Below are positions 1 through 38,656 of a DNA stretch of 39,727 nucleotides, in pieces. Position 1 is the stretch's first letter. Each line of letters opens with the position of its first letter. Under the pieces are notes generated by a model. It did not search any database. It had not been told where the DNA came from and was given only the letters and a program-made list of their open reading frames with translations. The DNA is from a virus. Lineage: Duplodnaviria; Heunggongvirae; Uroviricota; Caudoviricetes. Position numbers and translations under genes: made by a program. The DNA lies in IMG/VR virus record IMGVR_UViG_2778261268_000004. One strand, given 5' to 3'.

Positions 1-1257
1 GTGCTTACCGATACAAAATTAAAAAACCTCAAGCCGCAGGACAAACTGTACAAGGTCTCCGATCGTGACGGGCTGTATGTAGCTGTGCTTACGTCAGGCA
101 CGGTCTCGTTTCGCTATGACTACCGTATCAACGGTCGCCGCGAAACACTGGTAATCGGGCAGTATGGGCGTGACGGTATCAGCCTGGCAGAAGCGCGAGA
201 AGAACTGATTGCTGCAAAGAAGCTGCTTAAAGCAGGCCAGTCACCGGCTGCGGCTAAACGTGACGGTATCAAAAAGATTCGTGGTGCCGAGACGTTTGCG
301 GTACATACCGACAGTTATATGAAACACGTCATCCTGGCTGACAGTACCCGCGCAATGAAGCAGGCGGTGATCGACCGTGACATACTTCCAGTTCTTGGCA
401 ACAAAATGATGACTGAAATTACCACATCGATGGTTCGTGATTTGTGTGACCGGATTGTCGAACGCGGTGGTCGGGCAACAGCAGTACAGGCAAGGGAGAT
501 CATCAGCAGCGTATACCGTCACGCCAATGACCGTGGTCATGGTTTGTTTAATCCTGCGGCTGACATTAAACCTTCGTCTATCGCCATATTTAAACCACGA
601 GAGCGAACACTGACACCAGAAGAAATTGGCCTGTTCTTCCGCACGCTGGATGCCATTGGTGCTATGGGCACTATGAAAATGGCTTTAAAGCTGGTGCTTA
701 TCACTATGGTTCGTAAAGGCGAGTTCACCAATGCAACGTGGGATGAAATAGATTTTAAAAAATGGACATGGACAATTCCTTCAGACCGCATGAAGGGAAG
801 CCGGGCGCACGTTATTTACCTGCCTAAACAGGCACAGGATATATTGGTCGGGTTACAGATGTGCGCTGGTGGAAGTGAATATCTGGCTCCTGGTCGTTAC
901 AATTTCCGGAAGCCATTATCTAATGCCGCGCTGAACTCTCTGATCGACAGAACGGTGAAAATAATAAATGAAGATGGTGAGCATATTCAGGATTTCACCG
1001 TACACGATATGCGCCGTACAGCCAGTACGTTGTTGCATGAGGCTGGTTATCCTTCAGACTGGATTGAAAAGGCTCTGGCACATGAGCAGAAAGGTGTGCG
1101 CGCCGTATATAACAAAGCGGAATACGCAAGACAGCGCGCCTACATGTTGCAGCAGTGGGCCGATATGATTGATTCCTGGATTGACGGGGAGCATACGGAT
1201 CTGATTCCGTTCTCCCCGTCGAAGTTTGAGAAGTGGATGGAAGACAGTAATAAATAA
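1..1257 (+). CDS. int: Tyrosine integrase, P4/CP4-57 type (5' end cut by window edge)
   Basis: ORF runs from window edge; N-terminus LTDTKLKNLKP resembles P4-family integrases a few residues in; C-terminal catalytic region HDMRRTAST...VYNKAEY. Confidence 0.9.
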   Translation: MLTDTKLKNLKPQDKLYKVSDRDGLYVAVLTSGTVSFRYDYRINGRRETLVIGQYGRDGISLAEAREELIAAKKLLKAGQSPAAAKRDGIKKIRGAETFAVHTDSYMKHVILADSTRAMKQAVIDRDILPVLGNKMMTEITTSMVRDLCDRIVERGGRATAVQAREIISSVYRHANDRGHGLFNPAADIKPSSIAIFKPRERTLTPEEIGLFFRTLDAIGAMGTMKMALKLVLITMVRKGEFTNATWDEIDFKKWTWTIPSDRMKGSRAHVIYLPKQAQDILVGLQMCAGGSEYLAPGRYNFRKPLSNAALNSLIDRTVKIINEDGEHIQDFTVHDMRRTASTLLHEAGYPSDWIEKALAHEQKGVRAVYNKAEYARQRAYMLQQWADMIDSWIDGEHTDLIPFSPSKFEKWMEDSNK

Positions 1258-1259
1258 TT

Positions 1260-1919
1260 CTATCCTTCCTGGACTTTGGTAAGCGTCAGATTTCCGCAGA
1301 ACACTGCGCCGGTGTCGATGTACATCTGGTTTGCATACACCAGTGGGTGATGTGCTGGCGTATGACCGAAGATGAACAAATCGGCACCGGTTATCTCCGA
1401 GACAATACCGTCCTGCGCGTCGCTAACCCGCTCACGATTCCATATCACCATTTCTTCTGGTACTGGCTTATCGAATGCGTATTCGTTGTGCGGGTAGTCT
1501 GCGTGACAGATGACGACCTTCTTATTGCCGGTAACCAGTTCGATAATCATCGGGAGGTTGGTAATCTTTGGCAGAAGGTATTTGAGTTGCACATCCTGCT
1601 CAGAATCAAGTTGGTGCCACCATCCACCGCCGTTTGACATCCAATGTCCGAAACTTCCGCCGTTGACCAGTGCATCCAGCATCATCTGCTCATGGTTGCC
1701 ACGAACAGCTCGGAACCACGGCATAGTAATCAAATCCAGGCATTCGACGTTTTCAGCGCCGCGGTCAACAAGGTCACCAACGGAAATAAGTAAATCGCGC
1801 GCCGGGTCGAATGAAACTTTGTCGAGTTCGTTCATCAGCAGCGTGTAGCACCCATGCAGATCGCCGACGACGAAGATATTGCACCAGTCAGCGCCATTGA
1901 TGCGTTGATATAGGTTCAT
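1260..1919 (-). CDS. Ser/Thr protein phosphatase, lambda-PPase-like metallophosphoesterase
   Basis: Motifs GDLHG, GDLVDRG, GNHE in MNLYQRING... protein; start at internal ATG 1919 chosen because the track ORF start lies inside the upstream gene. Confidence 0.85.
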
Positions 1920-2566
1920 GCTGCACGCTCCCGCCCCTGGTTGTCTATTGGTGACACCGGAGCATTGCTGAATGCATTTGTTAATCCGCCAATATCCAAC
2001 GCGTATCCAGGGTGTAGTTGCACTGCCGGGTCTTCGCACTGATTACCCCAAACATCGAAGCCATGAGACGACTGGCGGGCGAACAGTTCAATGCGAGAAA
2101 CATCGCCTAACAATTGCACAAGTTTTTCACGAACGACATCTGGTTTTCTTGAATGCTCAAGCCGCGGTGCGGTAAATGACTGAACGATCCCTGCATTAAT
2201 GCGCGTAGGTAGTTTTCCCTTAACTGCAAACAGGCAATCTTCACTATTGGCGCGAGTCATGTGCCCCATACCCATAACCAGTTTATCTGGTTGTCGACTA
2301 CCACATTTTATCCACGTGAAGCCCTTCATGGTCATCAGACGGAATCCCCAGGCTTCAACAACTTTTAGTGCTTCGAGTGGTTGTGTTGGCACCCACCACA
2401 TGGCCAACAGACAGTTTTCACCGGCCAAATCCCACACAGGAAGGCGGCAGATATCCAGCACACTCATAACAGGATATTTAAAGCCGGCACCGCGATTACC
2501 ATCTGCGGCTTTGTCCCGGTATACCCAGGGTGGATCTGCATAGATTAGTGTGTATTTCTTAGTCAT
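1916..2566 (-). CDS. MT-A70 family N6-adenine DNA methyltransferase (orphan)
   Basis: DPPW catalytic motif ([14 protein letters not shown]); stop overlaps phosphatase start by 4 nt; no restriction partner nearby. Confidence 0.8.
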
Positions 2567-2810
2567 AAACCACCCCACAACATCCTATGCCGCTATAGTC
2601 GCCACGGCGAAGGCCGTTACCTTTTGTGATACATTGGTCCCTGCGAACCGCGATCCTTGCACGCTCAACATCACCAGAAGCAACATCCATACACTGAAGC
2701 CAAAGGTGGGCGGCAATGCGGAACTGCCCTTTTTTCTCTCTTTCAATCGCGCGTTTTTCGATCTCTATCGCCGCAGGAGTAACGGCAACAACCTTTGAAT
2801 GGCTGCGCAT
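2559..2810 (-). CDS. Hypothetical small protein (start uncertain)
   Basis: Open frame in operon context between AlpA-like gene and methyltransferase; weak AAGG before ATG 2810; no recognisable motif. Confidence 0.3.
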   Translation of the reverse strand: MRSHSKVVAVTPAAIEIEKRAIEREKKGQFRIAAHLWLQCMDVASGDVERARIAVRRDQCITKGNGLRRGDYSGIGCCGVVYD

Positions 2811-2967
2811 TGAAACCTTGTTCATGTGATATTTTTCAAGTCGGCTTAACTTTCTCACTTAATCCAACCCTCTCTGAAAATTAATGCCAGCAGATAAAGC
2901 CATGCTGAAACAGAGGCCAGGAATAAGTACCATCCTGACCATTTGCTCCAGTGCCTTAGCAGCGCAC

Positions 2968-3216
2968 TCATGCAGCGTTGCTCACAGGACGATATACACG
3001 TTGCTGAACAGGAGGCTTTTTACCCTGGAACTCTGCCGGGCTTGCTGCCTGACGTTCATCAAGCCAACGCTCAACTTCATCACGGTTCCATGCGCAGCGT
3101 TTATCGGTGATATACCAGCGTTTAGGAAATTCCCCTGCGCGCTCCATACGGTCGATAGTGCTCCATGACAGTGGCACCACCGCCAGGAGTTCCTTCTTAC
3201 CTAATGCACCTTTCAT
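2968..3216 (-). CDS. AlpA-family DNA-binding protein (probable excisionase/regulator)
   Basis: LSWSTIDRMERAGEFPKRWYITDKRCAWNRDEVERWL matches the AlpA/Vis-type HTH pattern; GAGAGG RBS. Confidence 0.7.
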   Translation of the reverse strand: MKGALGKKELLAVVPLSWSTIDRMERAGEFPKRWYITDKRCAWNRDEVERWLDERQAASPAEFQGKKPPVQQRVYRPVSNAA

Positions 3217-3265
3217 AAATACCTCTCTTGGTTGCAGTGCGGCGCGCGTGGCGCCGCGGTGGTGG

Positions 3266-4147
3266 TTACATAGATGTTTCGTTTAATTCTTCCCGACGAA
3301 CGCTGTAAACGTCGGTGGCTTTTGCCAGCAGTTCGTCATCATCTGAAAGTTTTTGTGCAATGTATTTGTAAGCCTTATCCAGTTCGGAGACAGTGATGTA
3401 ATTCATCGCTGCGCTGGTAAAGGCCATCAGCATTTCTTCTGGATCACGGCTATCCGCTTTACGCGTTTGCTCATCAGGCTTTTTCGCTGGTTTAGCGTTG
3501 ATCAGACTGTTCATTCCCGCAGCAGTGGTCGTTTGCGGAGTAATGTCTCGCTCAACGCGCGGTGCCGTTTCCTGTAATTCGTCAGGGGTGTAAACACCGA
3601 GAAGTACATCAGGAGCGTGCAGGCGAGCCCATCGTTTCGTGCAAAGATAGGCAAGCTGCTGGCGCGGATCCTGTTCCCACAATGGAGAGTTACGCACTCC
3701 GGCTTGCGCCATACTGATGGTAAGCTCACGGGGTTCTGCTTCTCCTTTAAGAACTGCTGACACAGTTACCGTCAGATTCGGTGATTTATCTGTTTTGCCG
3801 TTAACATTCGACCAGTCACCGCTCCAGCGATAATTCAGGCGTGTCGCTAGCAGGCTGGAAGAGGATACGACCGCGTTTACCAACTGTGCTTCGTAGCCTA
3901 ACGTTCCGTTTACCACATGCGTTTTCTGCGCCACGGCGAAAGGATTCATTCCCCACTGTGCCGCCTGCATGGTCACCGCCAGACAATCGGCAGGTTCGCC
4001 TTTAAGATGTTTCGGTACAGTCGCTTTGCTTTGTGACATCAACTCCGCGAAACGCACCAGTTGATTCATGCCCTCCGGGCTGAAGATTGCCGCAGCAGTA
4101 CCTACAGTTGCGCCTGGTTGTGATGTGATTGCGATATCATTGCTCAT
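3266..4147 (-). CDS. Single-strand annealing protein, Red-beta/Bet-like
   Basis: C-terminal LCTKRWARLHAPDVLLGVYTPDE...ERDITP resembles lambda Bet; paired with an upstream exonuclease. Confidence 0.8.
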   Translation of the reverse strand: MSNDIAITSQPGATVGTAAAIFSPEGMNQLVRFAELMSQSKATVPKHLKGEPADCLAVTMQAAQWGMNPFAVAQKTHVVNGTLGYEAQLVNAVVSSSSLLATRLNYRWSGDWSNVNGKTDKSPNLTVTVSAVLKGEAEPRELTISMAQAGVRNSPLWEQDPRQQLAYLCTKRWARLHAPDVLLGVYTPDELQETAPRVERDITPQTTTAAGMNSLINAKPAKKPDEQTRKADSRDPEEMLMAFTSAAMNYITVSELDKAYKYIAQKLSDDDELLAKATDVYSVRREELNETSM

Positions 4148-4965
4148 ACGTACATATCCTGTTTACGTGCCCAGTCAGGGCGTTTAATAATTTCCACTCC
4201 GCCCCACTCATCGTTGATGCGGCATTCGTGATAGGTATTCAGATCCCGGTGGAACAGAGCGTGCCCGGCATCGACATCCGGCGCATCCAGCTCGAACACG
4301 CGTACCGGATACCGACCACAATCAATGCTTTCGCTCACGGCAAGAAAGAAAAAACCATGCGGCTGACCAGTAACCCTCATTGCGCCTTCGCGGTACATTG
4401 CGTCCTGCACGTGGTAGCGGAATTCCTCGATGTGGCGTGCAAAACGGTCCATATCTGCAACCTTTTTCACGTCGACGATCACGTTGTGCTCGTTCAGCCA
4501 TTTGTCTGGACGAATTCGGCACAACTCACCCGTATCTTCATCGTTCCAGTACATTGATGCTTCGCAGTAACCAGGTGCTTCCAACATCCAGCGTGCCGCC
4601 GGGTGAGCCATTGCGCTAGCACGCATCAGCTCCAGTTTTCGCCACTGCTCTGCATCAAGTACCGAAATCCCCATATCCGCTACATCACGAATAAATGCCT
4701 CTTCGTCAGCTTTACCTTGTTTTGTCCGACGATCGAATTTCGGTGAAACGATGAAGCGTTTGTCAAACTCTCCAGGTTCCAGAAGCAGACAGTGCAGAGC
4801 AGTACCCATGTCCAGTGCAGACTTCTTCTCTTCGTCTTCCGGAGCAGCCTTCACCCATTTCAGAAGGGCAGGGTTCTTAGCCACCATATCTAGCTGCGAC
4901 TTACTCACGCCGTCACCGGCGTGGTAGTCCTCGTTGCTGATATCGAAATAAATTCCCGGATTCAT
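4144..4965 (-). CDS. PD-(D/E)XK 5'-3' exonuclease (RecE/exonuclease VIII-like)
   Basis: N-terminal GIYFDISNEDYH and D...E.K (DVKKV) nuclease signature; translationally coupled to the Bet-like gene. Confidence 0.75.
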   Translation of the reverse strand: MNPGIYFDISNEDYHAGDGVSKSQLDMVAKNPALLKWVKAAPEDEEKKSALDMGTALHCLLLEPGEFDKRFIVSPKFDRRTKQGKADEEAFIRDVADMGISVLDAEQWRKLELMRASAMAHPAARWMLEAPGYCEASMYWNDEDTGELCRIRPDKWLNEHNVIVDVKKVADMDRFARHIEEFRYHVQDAMYREGAMRVTGQPHGFFFLAVSESIDCGRYPVRVFELDAPDVDAGHALFHRDLNTYHECRINDEWGGVEIIKRPDWARKQDMYV

Positions 4966-5261
4966 GCCGCGTCCCTCTGCCCATCAATCTGATCAGCCAG
5001 ATCCCAGCGGGCGATAATTGCCATTGCCTCGCGCCGGTAGGCATCCATTAGTTCTTCGAACTCAGGGCTGTCTTTAGCGGCCTCTAGTACTTCCTGGCGA
5101 ACGCCTTTAACTGTTACAACGTCGAAAGTTGATGCCAGTTGATGAAGCCGGATACTCTCAATCAGTTCAACTTGTCGGTCATATAGCTGTTCTGACAGGC
5201 GGTAGTCCTTGTCGAATGCCAGCATGATTTTTTGAAGATTTTTCTGCTGATTAACGTTCAT
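4962..5261 (-). CDS. Hypothetical phage protein
   Basis: ATG 5261 preceded by GAGGTGG; overlaps neighbours in operon fashion. Confidence 0.5.
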   Translation of the reverse strand: MNVNQQKNLQKIMLAFDKDYRLSEQLYDRQVELIESIRLHQLASTFDVVTVKGVRQEVLEAAKDSPEFEELMDAYRREAMAIIARWDLADQIDGQRDAA

Positions 5262-5268
5262 ACCCACC

Positions 5269-6303
5269 TCAATATTTGATATACGCGTCCTGCACTTTGC
5301 CGCCAGCGATAGCCAACATTGCTTTCTGCGCGAATTCTTCGGGAATGCCTTGGGCTATCAGATCTGCGATTACTCTGCGGTTAACGGTACGGCGATGCTC
5401 TTTATCTGCAGCTCGGCGCGCTTCTTCGTCGGCGATACGCTTCTGTTCGTCAAGGCGGGCTTTTTCTGCCGCCTCTTGGCGTCGGCGTTCCTCGGCAACG
5501 GCTTCTTCTTTTTCGCGTCGTGCACGCTGCTCTGCTTCAATTCGCTGACGTTCTGCTACTTCAGCACGTGCTTTTTCTTCCACCGCCAGGCGTGCCGCAG
5601 CCTCAATTTCAGCTTTCGCTTTTTGTTCAGCTTCGAGCCTGGCCTGTTCAGCAGCTTCCCGGCGGATATTCTCTTCTCGCTCAATGCGCGCTTTTTCCTC
5701 CGCTTCTTTGCGAAGTCGCTCCAGCTCAGCGGCTTCATGCTCGCGTTTTTGAGCTACTGCGAGTGATTCTTCCAGTTTCTGGATGGTTGAATCCTTGGCT
5801 ACTCCAGCTTCTGCTGCGTACTCCTGCCAACTTTCATCAAGTGCTACTGATTTAGCCTCTTGAATTCGTTCCTGAATATCAGATGATGGCAAGTAGTTTC
5901 CGGAGAGATCGATCACGTCAGCTAGTGCTCGCAAATTTGTCAGGCGTTGTTGCAGTGCTTCAGTGCGTAATTTCTCAGCATTTTCCCACTCGGTGAGTGG
6001 GCGGCGTACTTCATCACGAAGCCGATCGCATTCGGTTACGAAGCGTCGTAACTCTGCTTCAACTACTTTCGGCTGTTCTTTCAGGCGTTTCAGATAATCA
6101 CGTCCTGGTTTTTCTACCGCTGTTTTACTTCTTGAAACCTTCGCAGCCAGAGATGCAATGCGCTTTCTGCCTTTGTCTGTGCTAATGTCAGGCACTTCAT
6201 TAACACCTTCACGGATCTGCTCGAGAAACTTTTCCAGCCCTTTTTCAACGTAAATTCTTGGTGCCATGTCTGGTGTGATTTCGATGATTGATAATTCACT
6301 CAT
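5269..6303 (-). CDS. Hypothetical protein with Ala/Glu/Arg-rich coiled-coil repeat region
   Basis: 344-aa ORF with GGAGTAGG RBS; central EAAEQARLEAEQKAKAE-type low-complexity tract. Confidence 0.6.
   Translation of the reverse strand: MSELSIIEITPDMAPRIYVEKGLEKFLEQIREGVNEVPDISTDKGRKRIASLAAKVSRSKTAVEKPGRDYLKRLKEQPKVVEAELRRFVTECDRLRDEVRRPLTEWENAEKLRTEALQQRLTNLRALADVIDLSGNYLPSSDIQERIQEAKSVALDESWQEYAAEAGVAKDSTIQKLEESLAVAQKREHEAAELERLRKEAEEKARIEREENIRREAAEQARLEAEQKAKAEIEAAARLAVEEKARAEVAERQRIEAEQRARREKEEAVAEERRRQEAAEKARLDEQKRIADEEARRAADKEHRRTVNRRVIADLIAQGIPEEFAQKAMLAIAGGKVQDAYIKY
5400..5800 (-). repeat. Low-complexity coding repeat (Ala/Glu/Arg/Lys heptad-like tract)
   Basis: Compositionally biased GC-rich tract within the 5269-6303 gene; produces spurious antisense ORFs. 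Confidence 0.6.
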
Positions 6304-6311
6304 TTGCTAAC

Positions 6312-6461
6312 CTACTCCCATATCTCGTTATCGTTTGCCACATCGCGAGCTTCTTTGCTGACGAAAGCCCACTTAATGCCTTCCTGTAAGGTGCGGAACT
6401 TCCAGCTCATGAATCCGCATGCAGTAACGCAGTACCAACCGTTGATGATTTTCCACTGCAT
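6312..6461 (-). CDS. Small hypothetical protein (49 aa, Trp/Cys-rich), first gene of leftward early operon
   Basis: Not in ORF track (<60 aa); ATG 6461 preceded by GAGGTAA SD; stop 8 nt before the next gene start; downstream of a TTGACA promoter. Confidence 0.35.
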   Translation of the reverse strand: MQWKIINGWYCVTACGFMSWKFRTLQEGIKWAFVSKEARDVANDNEIWE

Positions 6462-6480
6462 AATTTGTTACCTCGGTCTG

Positions 6481-6495
6481 TTACCGTTGAGGTAA
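6481..6495. promoter_or_regulatory. Operator-like palindrome TTACC-gttga-GGTAA (OL-like, site 1)
   Basis: Perfect 5-bp inverted half-sites; between leftward promoter and first leftward gene. Confidence 0.6.
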
Positions 6496-6523
6496 TGATT
6501 ATGCGTATCTGGTTTGATGTCAA
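6494..6523 (-). promoter_or_regulatory. Candidate leftward early promoter (PL-like)
   Basis: TTGACA (revcomp at 6518-6523) with CATAAT/ATAATC-like -10 about 14-16 bp downstream; flanked by the two operators. Confidence 0.45.
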
Positions 6524-6542
6524 TAGATATGAGTTAAAAAAA

Positions 6543-6557
6543 TTACCCATAAGGTAA
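6543..6557. promoter_or_regulatory. Operator-like palindrome TTACC-cataa-GGTAA (OL-like, site 2)
   Basis: Perfect half-sites, just upstream of the leftward promoter. Confidence 0.6.
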
Positions 6558-6570
6558 TCCTGCTGGCAAT

Positions 6571-6593
6571 AAAAAAGCCGCCATGAGGCGGCT
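6571..6593 (-). terminator. Rho-independent terminator after the repressor gene
   Basis: Stem AGCCGCC/GGCGGCT with T-run on the minus strand. Confidence 0.7.
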
Positions 6594-6614
6594 TACTTAC
6601 TGAAAAATATGATT

Positions 6615-7199
6615 TTATTGTTTGTTTTTTTCGTTCTGGCTGATGACAAATTCAATGTAACTTTCGATCTTTGCCTTCTCTGTTTCGGGTAACAATGCGT
6701 AGCGCGAGCGGTCATAGTTGATAGTCGCAGGGTCGTGCGGGTGAATCAGTAATTCATAGCCGTGACGCCCGAATGCGGATGCAACATTCTCCAGGGTGGA
6801 AATGGAAACGCTGACCTCATTGTTTAACAGGCGGCTGATTGTCACCTGGGCGACGCCGGATGCGCGGTGAAGTTTTCCCTGTGTTGAAAGGTCGCGGCTT
6901 TCGCTCATCCAGCGTTCCAGGTTGTGAGCCGCCAGCTGACCAATGTCGCTTGGGCCGACAGGCTGAAAACCTTCCTGAGAAAGCGAGCGATCGATATCAA
7001 GCCAGTTACGGGGTTTATTGGCGGCAGCTTCAATTTTTCGCGCAACCTGGTCGCCGATAACCTTCTTGCCAAGAGCCCAGCGGTTTACCAGATTTGCCTG
7101 AGTTCCAAGTTTTTCTGCCATCCGCGTCTGAACACCATTGAATTCACGGTCGATCAAGTCGTTGAGATTTTGCCTGCGGACGTCCTGGATACTTTTCAT
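6615..7199 (-). CDS. CI-like prophage repressor with two HTH (XRE-type) domains, no S24 peptidase domain
   Basis: Two HTH-like segments (QTRMAEKLGTQANLVNRW and GVAQVTISRLLNNEVSVS); divergent from a Cro-like gene; flanked by palindromic operators; terminator downstream. Confidence 0.7.
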   Translation of the reverse strand: MKSIQDVRRQNLNDLIDREFNGVQTRMAEKLGTQANLVNRWALGKKVIGDQVARKIEAAANKPRNWLDIDRSLSQEGFQPVGPSDIGQLAAHNLERWMSESRDLSTQGKLHRASGVAQVTISRLLNNEVSVSISTLENVASAFGRHGYELLIHPHDPATINYDRSRYALLPETEKAKIESYIEFVISQNEKNKQ

Positions 7200-28815: not shown

Positions 28816-28820
28816 ATTAA

Positions 28821-31463: not shown

Positions 31464-31488
31464 AGGCCGCTTTCGCGGCCTTGTTTTT
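31464..31488 (+). terminator. Rho-independent terminator ending the internal-virion-protein operon
   Basis: AGGCCGC-tttc-GCGGCCT followed by TGTTTTT. Confidence 0.75.
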
Positions 31489-31648
31489 AACGAATACCAC
31501 CGCCGCCAGGGCGGGAATCCGCAGAACGCCCACCGCAGCGGGAGCCGTCAGCGGCAGTATCGCTGTCGTGCTGACAACGACCGGCAAAGGCCTGAGTTGA
31601 AGCTACCAGAGACAACAAAACGAACAGTGCAGCAAATGCTTTTTTCAT
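31487..31648 (-). CDS. Small secreted peptide (signal peptide plus about 31-aa Gly/Arg-rich mature part with 2 Cys)
   Basis: MKKAFAALFVLLSLVASTQAFA signal-like N-terminus; weak RBS. Confidence 0.35.
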   Translation of the reverse strand: MKKAFAALFVLLSLVASTQAFAGRCQHDSDTAADGSRCGGRSADSRPGGGGIR

Positions 31649-31720
31649 TGTGAAATTTCCATCTATAAGCCACCTCAATGTGGCGTCAATGAGTGTAGCA
31701 CTGACTTTTGTTTCGTCCAC

Positions 31721-31746
31721 AAAAAAGCCCGCGCTGCGGGCTTCTA
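31721..31746 (-). terminator. Rho-independent terminator after the unknown 210-aa gene
   Basis: GAAGCCCGC-agc-GCGGGCTTC followed by TTTTTT on the minus strand. Confidence 0.75.
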
Positions 31747-32379
31747 TTAATGCAGTTTATCTTTGCTTATAACCAGTAGTCTGTGGGTATGCACATCTTT
31801 ATCACTGCCCCAACAGAAATCAGCCCACTGGCTATAGAAATCATCCCATGATGTCATGAAGCTAAGAGGTCTATCTTCTTCAGAGCCATCTGAAACGTAT
31901 ACATTATATCCCGGGGTGTTTATAGCCCAAGAAATCATTCTTTCCCAGAATCTTCTCCCATCGATTGTTTGTTGCTCATCAGATACAACAATCGCATATT
32001 GCTCTAGGAAGAACTGAAAAAAAATCTGAGGCAAACCATGAACAGCACGGTCATGAATAACATTAGGCGTACGCCATACCATGATCTGCGTACATGTTCT
32101 TTTGGCTTCGACGATATCTTCCCGAAAGATTAACTTAACCGCATACACCGTTTCTGGAGTATCGCTGGTAGTAATCATTCTGTAATGATCGCCATTACAA
32201 GATTTTACAAGGCGATAACCATAAGGTGTTGTGAATCCCGGAAGAACGAAATCAACCACACCTTTCGCTAAGTAGCTTTCGGTGTGACTAGTGTTCTTCT
32301 CAGACATGTTCAGTTTTCTATCGAAATCTGCTTCTGGGATAATGTATGGCATCGCTTTTCTTGTTGTATTTGTTCTCAT
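31747..32379 (-). CDS. Unknown 210-aa accessory protein (moron)
   Basis: Strong GGGAGGA RBS 5 nt from ATG; own terminator (31721-31746); TTACC-N5-GGTAA operator upstream; no recognisable motif. Confidence 0.6.
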   Translation of the reverse strand: MRTNTTRKAMPYIIPEADFDRKLNMSEKNTSHTESYLAKGVVDFVLPGFTTPYGYRLVKSCNGDHYRMITTSDTPETVYAVKLIFREDIVEAKRTCTQIMVWRTPNVIHDRAVHGLPQIFFQFFLEQYAIVVSDEQQTIDGRRFWERMISWAINTPGYNVYVSDGSEEDRPLSFMTSWDDFYSQWADFCWGSDKDVHTHRLLVISKDKLH

Positions 32380-32438
32380 TTCGTCCTCCCATGTTTGGCT
32401 ACAGGACGCGTTTTGAAGGGAAGATTAAAAATGCTTTC

Positions 32439-32453
32439 TTACCCTTGAGGTAA
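32439..32453. promoter_or_regulatory. Operator-like palindrome TTACC-cttga-GGTAA upstream of the unknown 210-aa gene
   Basis: Perfect half-sites about 60 bp upstream of ATG 32379 (minus strand). Confidence 0.5.
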
Positions 32454-32525
32454 TAGTACGCTATTCACCCCCAGTCTGCAATCTGTACAGAATTATTTAA
32501 AGGCACATCCCTGTGCCGCCGCCCG

Positions 32526-33236
32526 TCAGAAGAACCCTGCCTTGTCGTTGATGTACTCCGCGTGCGTCTGGATATCACGCAGGCATTTGCTCACACCGAC
32601 GATGTAGCAGAACATGGTGGTCAGTTCCGCCGCCGCGCCCGATACGTCGTGCCCGTCTTCCTGTAACTGGTTTAGCAGATTCATCAGCAGTGAGCTCTCC
32701 GTCAGGCCGAGAACACCAGACGGCGAATGAATCAGGCTACGGTAGCCTGGCTTCAGTGGGGCACTGTAGGTTTTGTTCTCTATCTTCATTGCCTGCATCA
32801 CTGCTGATGCTGTGGCGTTGGCTACCTGGTCGGCAACCATCTTTATGCGTTCTTCCTGCGGGAGCGAGTTTTTAATGTAACTTCCGGTGCGGCGGATCTG
32901 AGGAAGAACCTCACCTGTAACCCATTTACGAAAGCGGTAGGGGATAGTGCCTGGTGTCACCGCATCGCGGCAGCGGAGGATCAGTGTGTAGAGGCCTGAC
33001 TCGGAGATGATGTTGATCTCTTTTACTCGGCTATCAAAAATTGCACGATGTTCATGCCCTATGTTGAACATAGACCTTTCATCATCATCCAGTTTTTCAA
33101 GTGATTGGGTGACGTTTTGGATACGCAGCGCACTACAAACGTCTTGGGCTACAAACCATGGTTGGCCATCGATAATGATGGAACGGATAGGGTTAACAGA
33201 TTCAAATTTGAAGATGGCAGTTTGAGCATTAGCCAT
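32526..33236 (-). CDS. Bro-N domain antirepressor-like protein
   Basis: N-terminal FKFESVNPIRSIIIDGQPWFVAQDVCSAL...ESGLYTLILR Bro-N pattern; GGAGAT RBS. Confidence 0.75.
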   Translation of the reverse strand: MANAQTAIFKFESVNPIRSIIIDGQPWFVAQDVCSALRIQNVTQSLEKLDDDERSMFNIGHEHRAIFDSRVKEINIISESGLYTLILRCRDAVTPGTIPYRFRKWVTGEVLPQIRRTGSYIKNSLPQEERIKMVADQVANATASAVMQAMKIENKTYSAPLKPGYRSLIHSPSGVLGLTESSLLMNLLNQLQEDGHDVSGAAAELTTMFCYIVGVSKCLRDIQTHAEYINDKAGFF

Positions 33237-33253
33237 GGTGGTTATCTCCACTT

Positions 33254-33268
33254 AGTGATTTTAATCAC
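33254..33268. promoter_or_regulatory. Palindrome GTGATT-TTA-ATCAC immediately upstream of the Bro-N gene RBS
   Basis: Inverted repeat located -15 to -35 from ATG 33236 on the minus strand. Confidence 0.35.
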
Positions 33269-33391
33269 CACCGCAACGCCAATTACTGGTGGTGAACTGG
33301 ACAAGGTTGGCGTACCGGCCTAAGTGGTACCGGCGTCCTTTCGGACCCCTGCCCAGCCCACCATAATTCGGATATGGCTGTGCTTAACGCA

Positions 33392-33414
33392 TAAAAAAAC
33401 CACGTCTGGCGTGG
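33392..33414 (-). terminator. Rho-independent terminator inside the antirepressor intergenic region
   Basis: CCACG-ccaga-CGTGG followed by TTTTTTT on the minus strand. Confidence 0.65.
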
Positions 33415-33505
33415 TATGCGCCACTTAGTAACTCGGGACGCCAATCCCGGCACTGGATTTTGCCAGTGCCCGATTACTATGGCACAAGAGGAGTGCGATG
33501 TAAAT

Positions 33506-33520
33506 TTACCGCAAAGGTAA
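33506..33520. promoter_or_regulatory. Operator-like palindrome TTACC-gcaaa-GGTAA
   Basis: Perfect half-sites in the antirepressor intergenic region. Confidence 0.45.
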
Positions 33521-33551
33521 ATATAAGCACTCATCTTGGTAATTTCAAATC

Positions 33552-33809
33552 TTATCTGGTTTGTTTTCGTAATTGTTCGGCACAATAGTCGAGATGTGTT
33601 TGCAGATCCCGCATAGACATCTGTGAGCTGGTGACGTAGTTAATCAGTGCAGTCAGTTCGGCAAGTGGGCCATCGACATTAAATCCATCCTTATCGAGAT
33701 CCCGGAGTAATTTCATCAAGTGCGATCCCTCCACCAGTGATCTGACGCCTCCCGGCGTGTGAATCCTTTCGGTAAATCCGTCTTCCAGTGGATAGTGATA
33801 CTGCTGCAT
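33552..33809 (-). CDS. Small protein paralogous to the C-terminal domain of the Bro-N protein
   Basis: RSLVEGSHLMKLLRDLDKDGFNVDGPLAELTALINYVTSSQMSMRDLQTHLDYC aligns with the C-terminus of the 32526-33236 product; GGAGAAG RBS. Confidence 0.55.
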   Translation of the reverse strand: MQQYHYPLEDGFTERIHTPGGVRSLVEGSHLMKLLRDLDKDGFNVDGPLAELTALINYVTSSQMSMRDLQTHLDYCAEQLRKQTR

Positions 33810-33885
33810 CTTATCTTCTCCATGCAATAACTGTATATTTATACAGTATCAAATAATTTGTTTGCTATCCAGCACGTTTTGTAAA

Positions 33886-33900
33886 TTACCCGAAAGGTAA
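33886..33900. promoter_or_regulatory. Operator-like palindrome TTACC-cgaaa-GGTAA
   Basis: Perfect half-sites in the divergent region between the antirepressor-like gene and the tailspike; ATGTGGTT at 33933-33940 and GGTAAT at 33946-33951. Confidence 0.5.
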
Positions 33901-34004
33901 TATCTATTCGTATTTACAGTCTTTCTATCCATATGTGGTTTTTCAGGTAATAGAATAACCAGATATGCGGCGCAACGGGTGCTGCGACTATCTGGAGATT
34001 TAAC

Positions 34005-36296
34005 ATGACGGTCTCAACCGAAGTTGACCACAACGAATACACAGGCAATGGCGTTACGACATCGTTTCCGTATACCTTCCGCATTTTCAAAAAATCCGAC
34101 CTGGTTGTTCAGGTGGTTGACCTTGATGAAAATATCGCTGTGCTGGCTCTTGATACTGATTACACTGTCACTGGGGCTGGTGGATACAACGGTGGCAATG
34201 TAATTTTGTCGAAGGCATTGGCCAGCGGTCATCATATTTCTATATCTCGAGAGCTACCAGTTACGCAGGAAACCGATCTGCGCAATCAAGGTAAGTTCTT
34301 TGCTGAAGTGCATGAGGATGCTTTTGATAAGCTCACTATGCTTATACAGCGGGCATATAGCGTTTTTCGCTTAGCTCTGCGTAAACCATCAAGCATTGCG
34401 AACTGGTACGACGCGCTGAACAACTGCATCCGCAATTTGCGCGATCCCTGCAACCCGCAGGATGCCGCCACCAAAAATTATGTCGATACGCTCGCAAACA
34501 GCAACTTAATCCGCACGCTGCGAGTTCCAGAAGTTATTATATCCTTGCCTGATGCTGAAACCAGAGCTAATAAGATGGTTGCATTTGATAGTATCGGCAA
34601 TCCTTTAGTGGTTTTGCCTCCTTCAGGTTCTGCTTCTGATGTTCTTATTCAGTTGGCTGCCTCAGATGGAGCAAAATTATCGTTAAGTCAAGTAGCCACC
34701 GCATATGGCCTTGATTTCTCGTTAGGCGGTGTATGGCGGGAGGGGGCGTTATCTAATGTTGATAACTGGTGGTGGTATAATAATAAAATCTACACTGGTG
34801 GTAGTGGCACTCTTCCGTCATCTCCTGCTTTGCCATGGTACGAAGTGACGGTAGCAGATTATATTTCTGTTGCTCAATTTTTCCCCATTACTGGTGATCC
34901 AGCGGCAGATAACTCAGCTAGCTTTAATGCTGCTGCAGCAGTTGCTTTATCGGCAGGAAAGAGGCTGTTTGTCCCTGCAGGAACTTACTATGTTAAGTCA
35001 CCAGTTGATTTAACAATAGGCACTGTTGACCTATTCGGGGATGGCGTTGAGAAGTCATTCATTATTGCGGGGAGTGGGTTCACTGGAGAGGCAGTTGTCA
35101 ACATGTACTACGAAACTGACTCTATAAGACGTAGCACATCTATCTATCACGTTACAGTTGATGGGAACAACATCGCCAACTATCCTTGCCGAATTCAATA
35201 TGTTCACCTAGGAAGAACCCATAATTGTCGTTTCATCAATGGCGCGGTGGCGAACTTATATACTATAAACGACTGGCTTAATACCTATGATTGCTGTTCT
35301 TTTGTTCCTGCGCCAAATCGCGGAGTTCACCTTGCTGGGGCTAACAACCGCGTAACGTTCAATAACTGTGGATTTGCATCAAATAAGGTCGGTGAATATG
35401 CCTTTTATGCTTCTGGTACTTCCCCTATTGAAGGTTTAAGCTTAATTGGATGTGACCTTGAGTTCGGCATTGGGCATGGCATGTACTTAAATACCCGAGT
35501 GACCAATATTGTTGGCGGGTACTATGGCGAAGCGATACAAGGCGATATTTTTACGGTTCCAGATGGAGTAGTAAAAATAAGCGGTGTAAATGCTTTTGTA
35601 GGATATTACAATGAGGGAGGAAGGTTTGTTGTTCTTGACAATGATGCTGTAGTTAAGGTTGATAGTTGCTGGATTGCAGATCAGGGCAACTTTAAACTTT
35701 CATTACTTGCATCAAGCGCTAACAACATGGCTCATGCTGTATTTACTAAATGTTATATTGGTGCAACTGTGTCTGGCCCACAAGTTATGGAAGGAGATTG
35801 TTTAGGCAAGATCAATATGAGGACGTTTGCAGAAAGCAGGGCAATCCTTTATACAATGAACAATACTGGTAATACAGTAACCAGAAGCAGATACAACTCA
35901 ATAGGAGCAAAAATAACCATTAATACCGTAACGAGCCCTAGTTCTAACAAGCTATCACTTAATACTAAGATAAAAGACAGAGGGTGGAAGGTTAACGACC
36001 GGGTGTACTTAATTGTTACTTATGAGAGTAATGTTGATATAAATATTTATTTAAGCAGTTCGATATATGCTGCATCGGATGCAACGCTATTTGGAACTTT
36101 ACCATCAACAAATGGTTCTTTATCTACGTGTTATATTGCTAATAATATTATTCCGGAAAATACATCTGAGATATTCGAGTTTTATGTAAATGGCGCTGGT
36201 GTTGGCGATTACTTTGCTATTCAGGATGTTACTCTTACAGACAGGTCATTCACTTTCAGTGGAACAACTATGACCACTTTTGCTAAGGCTGAATAA
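34005..36296 (+). CDS. Tail fibre/tailspike: T7 gp17-like N-terminal anchor plus beta-helix-like C-terminal domain (probable depolymerase)
   Basis: N-terminal pattern ending NKNYVDTL as in T7-type fibres; C-terminal repetitive Asn/Gly-rich region suggestive of a right-handed beta-helix. Confidence 0.85.
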   Translation: MTVSTEVDHNEYTGNGVTTSFPYTFRIFKKSDLVVQVVDLDENIAVLALDTDYTVTGAGGYNGGNVILSKALASGHHISISRELPVTQETDLRNQGKFFAEVHEDAFDKLTMLIQRAYSVFRLALRKPSSIANWYDALNNCIRNLRDPCNPQDAATKNYVDTLANSNLIRTLRVPEVIISLPDAETRANKMVAFDSIGNPLVVLPPSGSASDVLIQLAASDGAKLSLSQVATAYGLDFSLGGVWREGALSNVDNWWWYNNKIYTGGSGTLPSSPALPWYEVTVADYISVAQFFPITGDPAADNSASFNAAAAVALSAGKRLFVPAGTYYVKSPVDLTIGTVDLFGDGVEKSFIIAGSGFTGEAVVNMYYETDSIRRSTSIYHVTVDGNNIANYPCRIQYVHLGRTHNCRFINGAVANLYTINDWLNTYDCCSFVPAPNRGVHLAGANNRVTFNNCGFASNKVGEYAFYASGTSPIEGLSLIGCDLEFGIGHGMYLNTRVTNIVGGYYGEAIQGDIFTVPDGVVKISGVNAFVGYYNEGGRFVVLDNDAVVKVDSCWIADQGNFKLSLLASSANNMAHAVFTKCYIGATVSGPQVMEGDCLGKINMRTFAESRAILYTMNNTGNTVTRSRYNSIGAKITINTVTSPSSNKLSLNTKIKDRGWKVNDRVYLIVTYESNVDINIYLSSSIYAASDATLFGTLPSTNGSLSTCYIANNIIPENTSEIFEFYVNGAGVGDYFAIQDVTLTDRSFTFSGTTMTTFAKAE

Positions 36297-36302
36297 TTAA
36301 CA

Positions 36303-36328
36303 GAAAAGGTGGATCACTCCACCTTTTC
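36303..36328. terminator. Bidirectional terminator after the tailspike
   Basis: AAAAGGTGGA-tcac-TCCACCTTTT, A-run and T-run on both sides. Confidence 0.75.
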
Positions 36329-36475
36329 ATCAAGCCAGTCCGCCCACCACTGCATCATTTCTCTGCGCTTATCGAGATACTGAGCATGGTTGTAAATCCC
36401 GCGCATAGATCCTCCGTTAGCATGTGTCAGTTGCACCGCATTGACATCCTCCACGCCCTGAAGTACTGGGTTTTA
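36314..36475 (-). pseudogene. 3'-terminal remnant of a second P4-type integrase gene
   Basis: Open frame PVLQGVEDVNAVQLTHANGGSMRGIYNHAQYLDKRREMMQWWADWLDEKVE aligns with the C-terminus of the intact integrase (KALAHEQKGVRAVYNKAEYARQRAYMLQQWADMID) but is divergent; no upstream gene body. Confidence 0.6.
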
Positions 36476-36530
36476 CGGCGCACTGGATAAATTTACGATC
36501 TCATCCGTAAAATACAAAAAAACCACTTTA

Positions 36531-36580
36531 TTACCTTTATGGTGATTTATGTAAGGTGTTTTATTTAACCATATATGGTT
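36531..36580. promoter_or_regulatory. Operator-like imperfect palindrome TTACC-tttat-GGTGA plus palindrome AACCATATATGGTT upstream of the lysis cassette
   Basis: Same half-site variant as 7303-7317; AACCATATATGGTT at 36567-36580. Confidence 0.4.
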
Positions 36581-36641
36581 TATTATGTATGATGAACTCA
36601 CCAACTAAGGGGGACTTTATGCATATTAAACGGTGGTCACT

Positions 36642-37046
36642 ATGTCAACCACGCTGACAACGGACTCACTTAATCAGGGGCTTAGCCTTGGCGCGCTGGC
36701 TTCAGTTGTTGTCGGTGTCCCTCCCGAGGTGGCGTTAGGTGCGCTGGCCGGTGCGGTAATTTTTGTTACCTCGGCTGTAGAGTATCCGATCAAGCGTCGG
36801 TTATTACTTGCGTTTCTCAGCTACCTATGCGGAGTTCTCTTCTATAAAGCAACAGCAACACTGCTTATCGGAATAGCGAGCTGGATACCGAAAATCACAC
36901 CTGACTCATTCGAGAATGGGGTTGCGTTCTCTGCCGGGGCATTCGTGTCAGCTATCGTCGCTGTCCGCATTGGCATATGGCTGTATCACCGTTCTGAAAA
37001 TCCGCGCGACTTGATCCCGGGGAGAAAAGACGATGGTAACGCATGA
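36642..37046 (+). CDS. Membrane protein, putative holin/antiholin
   Basis: Several hydrophobic segments; GGTGG RBS; first gene of the lysis cassette. Confidence 0.5.
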   Translation: MSTTLTTDSLNQGLSLGALASVVVGVPPEVALGALAGAVIFVTSAVEYPIKRRLLLAFLSYLCGVLFYKATATLLIGIASWIPKITPDSFENGVAFSAGAFVSAIVAVRIGIWLYHRSENPRDLIPGRKDDGNA

Positions 37047-37341
37047 GCTTTTTTTACTTATCACCAATGCAGTTATTTGTACTGGCATAGCAATTCGCGT
37101 TGTTACATTCCAGCGTAACGGATCTCAACACCGAAGATGGGGTGGGTGGATTGCTTATTTCCTGATTGTTGCTGCTGCCAGTATTCCAGTTCGTGTCGCT
37201 TATGCAATCTGGTTACATACGCCAATGGCTGTGGATTTATCTGAGGTCATTATCAACGCTGTCATGCTTGCTGCGGTTATTAAAACTCGCGGTAACGTCG
37301 TTCAGATTTTCAAAATAACGAGGTCTAAACATGGAGATTAA
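37033..37341 (+). CDS. Putative holin (3 predicted TM segments)
   Basis: 102-aa hydrophobic protein directly upstream of the endolysin. Confidence 0.5.
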
Positions 37342-37960
37342 ACAATTCCAGCGAGCTGCTGGTATCAGCGAGGCGCTGGCCGCACGCTGGTTCTTGCATA
37401 TAACTTCTGCGATGAAAGAGTTTGGTATCAGTAAACCCGAAGATCAGGCAATGTTTATTGCTCAGGTCGGGCATGAGTCTGGTGGCCTCACCCGGTTACA
37501 GGAAAATTTCAATTACAGCGTCACCGGACTGGCTAACTTTGTTCGGGCTGGGCGTCTCACCCAGGGACAGGCTAATGCACTGGGGCGCCGTGCTGGTGAA
37601 CCACCATTGCCACTTGAGCGCCAGCGCGCGATCGCAAATCTGGTATACAGCAAACGCATGGGTAACAATGCTCCCGGCGATGGCTGGAATTACCGTGGGC
37701 GCGGGCTTATCCAGATTACCGGCTTGAATAACTATCGTGACTGCGGAAACGGTCTGAAAGTTGACCTGCTGGAGAATCCTGAACTGCTGGCACAGGACGA
37801 ATACGCGGCTCGTAGCGCGGCCTGGTTCTTCTCCAGTAAAGGCTGCATGAAGTATACCGGAGATATTGTACGTGTAACTCTGATTATCAATGGTGGCAGG
37901 AACGGCATCGACGACCGGCGCGCGCGGTACATTACTGCCAGTAAGGTGCTGGTGGTATGA
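37331..37960 (+). CDS. Endolysin, glycoside hydrolase family 19-like
   Basis: AQVGHESGG ... GRGLIQITG ... NY motif series characteristic of GH19-type phage lysins. Confidence 0.85.
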
Positions 37961-38439
37961 TCTGGGCATTCGTCAAAGCGTACTGGAAACAGTTACTTAT
38001 CGTGGCGATGCTTGCTGCTCTGGTAATCGGCGGCAGGGTTGCCTGGAATGTACACGGCAGCCACCAGTACGATGCCGGGTATGCGCAGGCAAAGGCAGAT
38101 CAGAAACAGGCTGATGATAAAGCTCGTCAGCATGACGAACAGGAAAAAGCGACCAATGAACGTGAAGCGCAGCAGAGGATCGACCAGGCGCGCAATGATG
38201 CTCTTGATGCTGCCGCTCGCGCTGGCCGGTTGCAGCAACAGCTCGTTGCCATCCGTGAGCAGCTCAGGCAGTATAACGCCACTATCGGCACTGGGGCGTC
38301 AGCCGCAGACACCGGAGTTTTGCTTGCCGACGTGCTCAGCAAATCTCTCGAGCGAAACCGACAACTGGCAGAGTACGCTGACCGGGCCGCCGAAGCCGGA
38401 CGAGTCTGTGAAAAGCAGTACGATTCGCTGACACGGTGA
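37957..38439 (+). CDS. i-spanin (Rz-like)
   Basis: N-terminal TM ([14 protein letters not shown]) followed by charged coiled-coil; after the endolysin. Confidence 0.65.
38156..38431 (+). CDS. o-spanin (Rz1-like lipoprotein) embedded in +1 frame of the i-spanin gene
   Basis: Lipobox LALAGC after a basic n-region, Pro-rich mature part; AGGAAAAAG RBS. Confidence 0.55.
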   Translation: MNVKRSRGSTRRAMMLLMLPLALAGCSNSSLPSVSSSGSITPLSALGRQPQTPEFCLPTCSANLSSETDNWQSTLTGPPKPDESVKSSTIR

Positions 38440-38592
38440 CATGGCATTTTTCATGGCACTGATTTCCGGTGACGGTATATAAAACGGTACGGTGAAAATC
38501 AGATTGCATAAAATTGTTACCAGTCAATTGGTTATGTGTGTCGTAAATAATTGAGTGGGAATGATTTGACCCTGCACTATGAATGAACAAAA

Positions 38593-38618
38593 CCCTCTGT
38601 TACTACAGAGGGTTTTTT
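38593..38618. terminator. Bidirectional terminator at the probable prophage right boundary
   Basis: CCCTCTG-ttacta-CAGAGGG followed by TTTTTT. Confidence 0.75.
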
Positions 38619-38656
38619 ATCTTCAAGAATTATAGGATTGAAGTTACTAACATCGA

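Follow-up and report, generated by a model that had tools for sequence, protein, structure and literature searches.

What kind of phage occupies the stretch of DNA analyzed here, and is it as unusual as it looks? The stretch (hereafter the window, 39,727 nucleotides of IMG/VR record IMGVR_UViG_2778261268_000004) carries a mosaic temperate podovirus-type genome whose early region has modules in common with lambdoid phages, as an earlier note made from its letters alone had described; that note joined the early region to a T7-like virion module and suspected an uncommon, poorly characterized lineage. Our analysis indicates that positions 1 to 38566 are almost certainly a prophage of Uetakevirus, a genus of epsilon15/phiV10-like temperate podoviruses; it appears intact and sits at the 3' end of the Escherichia coli gene guaA. 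The element is of an already known kind, and its lineage is neither rare nor poorly characterized: the DNA of its adaptor and nozzle genes is present in 536 of 5,426 complete E. coli genomes (about 10%, mostly at 95 to 99% identity), PDB structures from cryo-electron microscopy (cryo-EM) exist for relatives, which puts the lineage among the structurally best-known ones, and the T7 homology has been published (PMC4819975). Furthermore, Uetakevirus prophages of E. coli are in routine use for tailspike and serogroup work (PMC10408124).

The nearest relatives were sought by megablast against 50,697 phage records and by direct blastn against phiV10 (NC_007804), vB_EcoP_PAS61 (PAS61, OQ921333) and Salmonella phage epsilon15 (NC_004775), the type member of Uetakevirus, a genus in which the PAS61 and phiV10 records are also classified. 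In megablast, the first 20 kb is 97 to 98% identical across 79 to 88% to phiv142-3 (MN187550), PAS61, vB_EcoP_ZX5 (ZX5), HEMP4 and TL-2011b, and the second half is 94 to 96% identical across 71 to 77% to phiV10, the O157 typing phages 9 and 10, phiv142-3 and PAS61. Over the whole window, identity reaches 95.5% across 81% with phiV10 and 97.1% across 79% with PAS61, and the structural block at 11644 to 31507 is 97.6% identical to phiV10 in direct blastn. The segments specific to the window relative to phiV10 and PAS61 lie at 5262 to 6314, 10252 to 11643, 31508 to 32514 and 34661 to 36563 (blastn). At the protein level, the best epsilon15 matches of the virion proteins are collinear and correspond to gp1 to gp17 plus the first 225 residues of gp20, with identities of 28 to 95% (BLASTP); the lysis cassette, integrase and repressor of epsilon15 are also orthologous to those of the window. 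The synteny comparison that the earlier note had proposed was run and finds the window collinear with epsilon15, phiV10 and PAS61. Solved relatives comprise the capsids of BPP-1 (3J4U) and epsilon15 (3J40), the portal, adaptor, nozzle and capsid of Cobetia phage Carin-1 (8CJZ, 8CK0 and 8CK1, attributed to this phage through the fold search and GenBank annotation) and the tail of Legionella phage LME-1 (9EFK). A short-tailed virion with six tailspikes would be expected here from the isolates that are 94 to 98% identical and from the cryo-EM of epsilon15 and Carin-1; likewise, virion morphology, inducibility and ejection mechanism are presumed to follow those of the studied relatives.

The position of the element in the host chromosome is defined by the following features at its right end.

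38550 to 38566, plus strand: attR core ATTGAGTGGGAATGATT, 17 nucleotides (nt), right end of the prophage
38657 to 39196, minus strand: host gene yfgI, outside the phage
39212 to 39727, minus strand: host gene yfgH, outside the phage

The att core consists of the last four guaA codons and the stop (IEWE*), so that integration regenerates the 3' end of guaA. It occurs once in the window, and the homology to the phiV10 attP breaks off at this core; the prophage therefore ends at 38566, and the end at 38620 given previously lies about 55 bases too far. A guaA terminator hairpin follows the att core at approximately 38591 to 38617. The yfgI/yfgH region was found in 5,422 of 5,426 complete E. coli genomes, and in strain VG48B2 (NZ_CP128584.1, 3265500 to 3310500) a related element sits between guaA and yfgI with the 17-nt repeat at both ends, being 100% identical to the window over 1 to 8063 and 36313 to 39727. 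Within the window, one collinear phage genome runs from the integrase start at base 1 to the end of the lysis cassette at 38439. The VG48B2 copy is decaying; much of its replication/nin block and most of its head and tail genes are lost, and pseudogenes are present.

Several points weigh against an intact Uetakevirus prophage. DNA likeness to epsilon15 itself is only 76% identity across 45% (blastn). The attL site lies upstream of the window, and completeness of the left end rests on the VG48B2 relative. The AlphaFold model of the tail nozzle, built from a shallow alignment, has a pLDDT of 40.9 and was left unused, and the link between this protein and T7 comes from profile comparison and the literature. 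Finally, no O-antigen-modifying gene stands beside the tailspike (36297 to 36632), unlike in phiV10 (oac), PAS61 (acetylase) and epsilon15 (genes 21/22), and a fragment of an integrase gene in this slot shows a past rearrangement.

36326 to 36430, minus strand: C-terminal remnant of a second integrase gene, about 105 nt (tblastn of the window integrase, 43% over 35 amino acids [aa], E 9e-7)

The same fragment is annotated as a partial integrase in VG48B2. Its place between the tailspike and lysis genes, together with an attL outside the window and the large deletions and pseudogenes of the VG48B2 element at the guaA site, would suit a defective, remnant prophage or a chimera of two elements created in assembly. 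However, throughout its length the window is collinear with the plaque-forming phages phiV10, PAS61, ZX5 and phiv142-3, all expected open reading frames (ORFs) are open and of full length relative to epsilon15 and phiV10, and neither GC content nor strand skew shows a break. GC content is even (0.42 to 0.54), and the skew is negative at approximately 2 to 8 kb, where the early genes run leftward, and for the most part positive after about 8 kb. We consider a remnant or chimera improbable and retain the intact Uetakevirus prophage.

How closely the virion resembles that of T7 is the second question raised by this locus. The portal, the tail tube and the proteins expected to be ejected with the DNA are encoded as follows.

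15556 to 17235, plus strand: portal (Pfam PF12236, 624 bits; 81% to epsilon15)
20436 to 21041, plus strand: adaptor, 201 aa, T7 gp11 homolog (PDB 8CK1 'Connector Protein'; 85% to epsilon15)
21041 to 23494, plus strand: nozzle, 817 aa, T7 gp12 homolog (PDB 8CK1 'Tail Nozzle'; 87% to epsilon15, 44% to Carin-1)
23494 to 23958, plus strand: gp13-like protein, 154 aa (PHROG 308; 62% to epsilon15)
23958 to 24503, plus strand: gp14-like protein, 181 aa (Pfam T7_gp14, PF24072; 78% to epsilon15)
24503 to 27016, plus strand: ortholog of epsilon15 gp15, 837 aa, with a lytic transglycosylase region (PHROG; 59% to epsilon15)
27013 to 28815, plus strand: ortholog of epsilon15 gp16, 600 aa (32% identity)
28821 to 31295, plus strand: ortholog of epsilon15 gp17, 824 aa (28% identity)

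The sizes and order of the virion genes parallel T7 gp8 to gp17, in agreement with the T7 order reported before. Neither BLASTP nor phmmer matched any window virion protein to T7 or P22 proteins at E<0.01, and profile and fold methods were consequently used instead. For the portal, PF12236 scores 624 bits with the window protein and 379 bits with T7 gp8, and the cross-matches of PHROG 332 and 449 are reciprocal; the P22 portal belongs to another Pfam family, PF16510. The adaptor and nozzle do not match the Pfam families of T7 gp11 and gp12 (PF17212 and PF25675). Foldseek nevertheless paired the AlphaFold model of the adaptor (pLDDT 87.7) with Carin-1 (E 1.6e-16), LME-1 and PhiM1, with T7 gp11 (E 1.8e-6, TM about 0.6), and with further T7-like adaptors including tubular protein A of KP32; P22 gp4 was not listed.

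Group alignments compared with hhalign point in the same direction. These were built from 19 fetched loci, with 8 to 9 sequences in the epsilon15 group, 7 in Autographiviridae and 4 to 5 in the P22 group. Between the epsilon15 and T7 groups, the nozzles align over 502 columns (E 1.7e-13, probability 98%) and the adaptors over 176 columns (E 4.2e-7). Against the P22 group, the corresponding values are E 0.23 over 18 columns for the nozzle and gp10, and E 0.002 over 35 columns for the adaptor and gp4; mismatched controls gave E 0.07 to 0.69 over 25 to 36 columns. When a shallow adaptor alignment (34 to 35 enterobacterial sequences, Neff 2) was compared by hhalign with single T7 gp11 or P22 gp4 sequences, nothing was found, and small profiles searched against PDB sequences recovered Carin-1 and LME-1 only, T7 not being found.

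Among the internal proteins, PHROG 308 is the best family for both the gp13-like protein and T7 gp13, and the gp14-like protein reaches 31.2 bits with Pfam T7_gp14, where the cutoff is 27 bits. The three large internal proteins have no match to T7 gp15 or gp16 at the sequence or profile level. Previous work linked epsilon15 gp17 to T7 gp16 and could not confirm a gp15 homolog (PMC4819975). The lytic transglycosylase also differs in its location, being found in the first large internal protein of the window rather than in a protein like T7 gp16.

These comparisons support a portal, tail-tube and injection module that is distantly homologous and syntenic to that of T7, and not P22-like. The T7-like label previously given to the whole virion module finds support at a remote level in the portal, adaptor, nozzle and gp13- and gp14-like proteins and fails for the capsid, the scaffold-position protein and the terminase; it was an overstatement for a module with no pairwise match. 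Protein-level searches, another check suggested at the outset, place the proteins with epsilon15, BPP-1 and Carin-1, and the remote T7 homology of portal and tail emerges only by profile or fold. Of the clustering with P22-like or other non-T7 podovirus families, which the earlier note had set against its own interpretation, the P22-like kind was not found, and the P22 families are unmatched. The relationship itself has been described before. Hardies et al. (2016; PMC4819975) reported that homologs of the T7 tubular tail A/B proteins occur in synteny in the epsilon15 group, as do those of internal virion proteins A, B and D; that, of the nozzle models, only those of epsilon15 and T7 matched strongly (E<1e-10); and that the terminase and capsid of epsilon15 group with siphoviruses. 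Except for the siphovirus grouping and the link of protein D, our analysis reproduces the points of that study independently. The RefSeq record of epsilon15 already cites T7 gp11 for gp11, and a 2022 review places epsilon15 among the podoviruses with T7-type ejection proteins (PMC8954989).

Could a member of the T7 supergroup (Autographiviridae-like) have turned temperate, its virion module being recently grafted on a lambdoid chassis? The homologous portal, adaptor and nozzle and the gp13-like, gp14-like and fiber-anchor parts with their family links to T7, in T7 order and of similar sizes, would fit such a history. However, the window has no RNA polymerase, T7-type DNA polymerase or primase, in line with the lack of a phage RNA polymerase stated in the earlier note (no RNA polymerase family was matched, and all ORFs above 300 aa but the 344-aa one at 5269 to 6303 are assigned, either to a family or as epsilon15 orthologs). 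Besides the missing pairwise matches, sequence comparison relates neither the capsid nor the scaffold-position protein nor the terminase to T7, and cement proteins are additionally present. Of the 221 phage records reached by tblastn with the nozzle, 60 were sampled across the ranking, and no classical T7-like phage is among them. The portal-tail module is conserved in epsilon15, BPP-1, Carin-1, Ab31, pelagiphages and Liberibacter SC1/SC2; because this is an old and wide clade, the relation to T7 reflects ancient divergence and not a recent graft, which we reject as very unlikely.

A P22-like (Lederbergvirus) prophage, with a P22-type portal, a gp4/gp10/gp26 tail and a head-binding tailspike, has next to no probability and is rejected at the sequence and fold levels, since its similar layout (an antirepressor module between the ejection and tailspike genes, an integrase by the end of the late region), a receptor-binding domain shared at 97% identity with spikes that have a P22-type head-binding domain, and shared NinX and Ea22-type genes are opposed by the failure of every window virion protein to match any P22 protein (BLASTP), by the unmatched P22 portal, gp4, gp10 and gp7 families (PF16510, PF11650, PF11134 and PF25688), by the weak hhalign values for gp10 and gp4 and the Foldseek result given above, and by the absence of PF09008 in a scan of the whole tailspike.

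The ancient kinship of the Uetakevirus tail with T7 is not seen at the sequence level for the capsid, scaffold-position protein and terminase. The head and packaging genes are arranged around the portal as follows.

12023 to 12697, plus strand: terminase small subunit, TerS (Pfam PF03592 and PHROG terminase assignments)
12694 to 14169, plus strand: terminase large subunit, TerL (PHROG 2/51 assignments; 95% identical to epsilon15 gp2)
14260 to 14631, minus strand: Gp49/Sf6-gene-66 family gene (Pfam PF13876)
14831 to 14907, minus strand: tRNA-Arg(UCU) (ARAGORN; Rfam tRNA, 73 bits)
15335 to 15541, plus strand: gp3-like protein, 68 aa (PHROG 831, unknown function)
17232 to 17528, plus strand: Bbp19-like protein (Pfam Bbp19 family)
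17525 to 18226, plus strand: scaffold-position protein, 233 aa (PHROG 458, labeled 'protease')
18241 to 19227, plus strand: major capsid protein (Pfam PF20911, epsilon15 GP7 capsid, 497 bits)
19279 to 19716, plus strand: Bbp16-like cement protein (Pfam Bbp16 family)
19718 to 20062, plus strand: gp9-like protein (40% to epsilon15)
20107 to 20436, plus strand: gp10 capsid staple (Pfam PF21628, 170 bits; 43% to epsilon15)

TerS and TerL lie upstream of the portal, the placement already recognized from the ORF list. The head genes belong to Pfam families PF12236, PF25181, PF20911, PF21190 and PF21628 and match PDB entries 8CK0, 3J4U, 3J40 and 8CJZ. By these families, the capsid belongs to the epsilon15/BPP-1 type and has cement proteins of the Bbp16-like and gp10 staple kinds. 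Relations to the T7 capsid and scaffold are absent at the level of PHROGs (212 versus 267 and 458 versus 1052), and the capsid profile found only BPP-1, epsilon15 and Carin-1 in the PDB. Head identities to epsilon15 span 36 to 88% across 15335 to 20436; the capsid protein has 43% and the gp8-like protein 36% (BLASTP), whereas identity of the capsid protein to its counterpart in Bordetella phage BPP-1 is higher (62%). Mosaicism within the genus is also visible here, the head-shell genes at 18241 to 20436 (capsid protein, Bbp16-like, gp9-like and gp10 staple) having 36 to 43% identity to epsilon15 and the flanking portal, adaptor and nozzle 81 to 87%.

For the 68-aa ORF, read previously as gp7.3-like, no similarity to T7 gp7.3 could be detected. 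As for the scaffold, the label given in the earlier note is only positional and compositional. In the 233-aa protein, an N-terminal part rich in Pro, Asp and Lys precedes a charged, helical-looking C-terminal part, and Pfam finds no protease domain despite the 'protease' label in PHROGs and GenBank; the protein may resemble a scaffold, and the database label seems doubtful. The tRNA-Arg(UCU), which reads the rare AGA codon and lies between the terminase and the portal, is not listed for phiV10 or PAS61 and is annotated in the VG48B2 chromosome.

The single unusual feature of the element is its tailspike, preceded by a gene in a variable 'moron' slot.

31747 to 32379, minus strand: soluble protein, 210 aa, variable 'moron' slot (no match in Pfam or PADLOC; PHROG 1349, unknown function)
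34005 to 36296, plus strand: tailspike, 763 aa (aa 1 to 225, Uetakevirus anchor with a probable T7 gp17-type domain; aa 226 to 763, beta-helix receptor-binding domain, PF12708)

The anchor is 73 to 82% identical to Uetakevirus spikes (epsilon15, phiV10 and TL-2011b), has PHROGs 1640, 8460 and 27277 in common with T7 gp17, and spans the full PF03906 profile at 18.9 bits, below the cutoff of 25.2. The P22 head-binding domain PF09008 is absent from the tailspike when scanned whole with Pfam. E. coli spikes of 664 to 665 aa that carry PF09008, one of them named O141:H4, match the receptor-binding domain of the window (aa 226 to 763) at 97% identity, whereas the phage collection contains no counterpart of it. 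The 5.4-kb region at 31300 to 36700 is covered to at least 80% in a single complete E. coli genome (ETEC1716), and the exact chimera (WP_244565267.1) is known on 2 contigs only. The tailspike is a rare chimera of a Uetakevirus anchor and a receptor-binding domain otherwise seen in P22-type spikes. It is conceivable, although we regard it as rather unlikely, that the phage targets an O-antigen for which no Uetakevirus phage has been characterized and, lacking the usual neighboring O-antigen-modifying gene, would need to obtain superinfection immunity from another gene, the 344-aa and 210-aa proteins being candidates. The 210-aa ORF has no equivalent in phiV10.

Between the internal proteins and the tailspike lies a second immunity module, and downstream of the tailspike is the lysis cassette.

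32526 to 33251, minus strand: Bro-N antirepressor gene (Pfam PF02498; PHROG Ant families)
33285 to 33368, minus strand: C4 antisense RNA (Rfam RF01695, 66 bits, above the gathering score)
33393 to 33469, minus strand: isrK-like Hfq-binding RNA (Rfam RF01394, 67 bits, above the gathering score)
36633 to 37046, plus strand: membrane protein/holin (Pfam PF16931)
37033 to 37341, plus strand: holin (Pfam PF05449)
37331 to 37960, plus strand: GH19 endolysin (Pfam PF00182)
37957 to 38439, plus strand: Rz-like spanin, DUF2514 (Pfam PF10721)

Both RNAs are directly upstream of the antirepressor gene, and promoter-like and terminator-like sites are present. The C4 and isrK RNAs and the Bro-N antirepressor are predicted to form a P1/P7 immI-like module, at the place that immI occupies in P22. 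The listed ORFs at 33283 to 33585 and 33552 to 33827 overlap the RNAs and are probably not genes. The phiV10 and PAS61 records carry no annotation of C4/isrK RNAs. The lysis cassette occupies 36633 to 38439 and the tailspike ends at 36296, which bears out the earlier placement of the lysis genes after the fiber.

The early region holds the genes for integration, recombination, regulation and replication.

1 to 1257, plus strand: tyrosine integrase, P4-type, with an arm-DNA-binding domain (Pfam PF13356, PF00589 and PF22022)
1260 to 2039, minus strand: NinI-like metallophosphatase (Pfam PF00149)
1916 to 2578, minus strand: MT-A70 adenine methyltransferase (Pfam PF05063; PADLOC MTase_II)
2559 to 2858, minus strand: PerC-like protein (Pfam PF06069)
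2968 to 3216, minus strand: AlpA/excisionase-like regulator (Pfam PF05930)
3266 to 4147, minus strand: RecT-family annealing protein (Pfam PF03837)
4144 to 4965, minus strand: RecE-like PD-(D/E)XK exonuclease (Pfam PF12684)
5269 to 6303, minus strand: coiled-coil ORF, 344 aa, variable insert (no Pfam or PADLOC match)
6615 to 7199, minus strand: dual-HTH repressor (Pfam HTH_3; ortholog of epsilon15 gp38)
7257 to 7269, 7274 to 7286 and 7303 to 7315: three operator-like 13-mers between the repressor and cro-like genes
7354 to 7584, plus strand: cro-like gene, 76 aa, divergent from the repressor
7951 to 8766, plus strand: initiator with HTH and DnaT domains (Pfam PF17948 and PF13730)
8748 to 9548, plus strand: lambda-P-type helicase loader (Pfam PF06992, 191 bits)
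9666 to 11982, plus strand: nin-like accessory block (DUF1064, a 153-aa ORF, DUF7446, Ea22/DUF551, NinX and a 112-aa regulator-like ORF; Pfam)

The integrase region is 98% identical in DNA to the int region of phiV10, and the leftward accessory block at 1260 to 3216 is collinear with the PAS61 and phiV10 annotation. Among the unassigned and accessory ORFs, PADLOC matched the methyltransferase only and identified no defense system. The recombination pair had been read as Bet/exonuclease; the two genes instead encode a RecT-family protein and a RecE-like PD-(D/E)XK nuclease, functional equivalents from other families, and their epsilon15 orthologs are annotated as RecT-like and RecE-like. Between the recombination genes and the repressor, the 344-aa ORF has a long Glu/Arg/Ala/Lys-rich coiled-coil segment; it is missing from phiV10 and PAS61 and present in VG48B2.

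A cI/cro-type switch with multiple operator-like sites, already recognized in the earlier note, appears to be present, the dual-HTH repressor facing the small cro-like gene across the three operator-like 13-mers. The O/P-like replication genes proposed before were half right: the P-type loader stands, and in place of O there is an initiator of the DnaT/HTH_36 type. The nin-like block is upheld as a small accessory block including NinX; its DUF1064, DUF7446, Ea22/DUF551 and NinX genes fall within 9666 to 11651. No homolog of the N and Q antiterminators was detected, the ORFs in those positions having no Pfam match. The early half has DNA in common with hundreds of Stx and lambdoid phages (megablast); even so, the term lambdoid fits the left half only loosely.

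Beyond the homologies, synteny and integration site observed in the window, the gene content and the studied relatives suggest how the phage would propagate. During lysogeny, the P4-type integrase would insert the prophage into the 3' end of guaA, and the dual-HTH repressor would act on the three operators; the immI-like module, with its C4 antisense RNA and Bro-N antirepressor, could override this repressor. For replication, the DnaT-domain initiator and the lambda-P-type loader would recruit the host replisome. A pac-type terminase would then carry out headful packaging into a T=7 capsid of the epsilon15/BPP-1 type, reinforced by the Bbp16-like and gp10 staple proteins. The gp8-family portal would be followed by the gp11-type adaptor and the gp12-type nozzle, and six O-antigen-degrading tailspikes would attach through the T7 gp17-type anchor. 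The gp13-like and gp14-like proteins, the transglycosylase protein and the two other large proteins would be packaged as a core and, as in T7 and epsilon15, ejected to form a channel across the cell envelope. Lysis would be effected by the holins, the GH19 endolysin and the spanin.

These results have little discovery value, as they concern a common and well-described type of E. coli prophage whose T7 kinship in the tail and injection machinery is already in print. Their value for annotation is greater; the adaptor, nozzle and internal proteins, mostly 'hypothetical' in the databases, can now be named, and the antirepressor module controlled by the C4/isrK RNAs can be annotated. In addition, the tailspike offers a clean example of receptor-binding-domain exchange between spikes of the Uetakevirus and P22 types, useful for serogroup prediction and for the engineering of phage host range.

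Set beside known systems, the element resembles phages of the phiV10/PAS61 type most closely, in gene order, in the integrase and attP region, and in its virion, lysis, repressor and replication genes; it differs from phiV10 in that RecT and the RecE-like exonuclease are fused in that phage and encoded by two separate genes in the window. In epsilon15, the replication and accessory genes are unlike those of the window, and the serotype-conversion genes 21/22 are present. With BPP-1 (Rauchvirus) and Carin-1, the window shares the head-to-tail gene order and a homologous portal, capsid (3J4U, E 1e-128), Bbp16, Bbp19, adaptor and nozzle, whereas hosts, replication modules and receptor-binding proteins are different, and BPP-1 possesses a DNA polymerase and a diversity-generating retroelement. 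The lambdoid phages (lambda, P22 and Stx phages) have in common with it the divergent repressor/cro-type switch, the lambda-P loader, NinX, Ea22/DUF551 and a left arm of integrase, xis and recombination genes. However, they use an O initiator and Bet/Exo and place their lysis genes before the terminase, whereas the window has a DnaT-type initiator, RecT/RecE-like proteins and lysis genes after the tailspike. T7, finally, lacks counterparts of the Bbp16-like and gp10 proteins, and its capsid, scaffold and terminase are unrelated at the sequence level to the proteins in those positions here; unlike T7, the window is temperate, has no RNA or DNA polymerase and carries its terminase upstream of the portal. 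What the two have in common is the order and the similar sizes of the portal, adaptor, nozzle, gp13, gp14, large internal proteins and fiber (gp8 to gp17).

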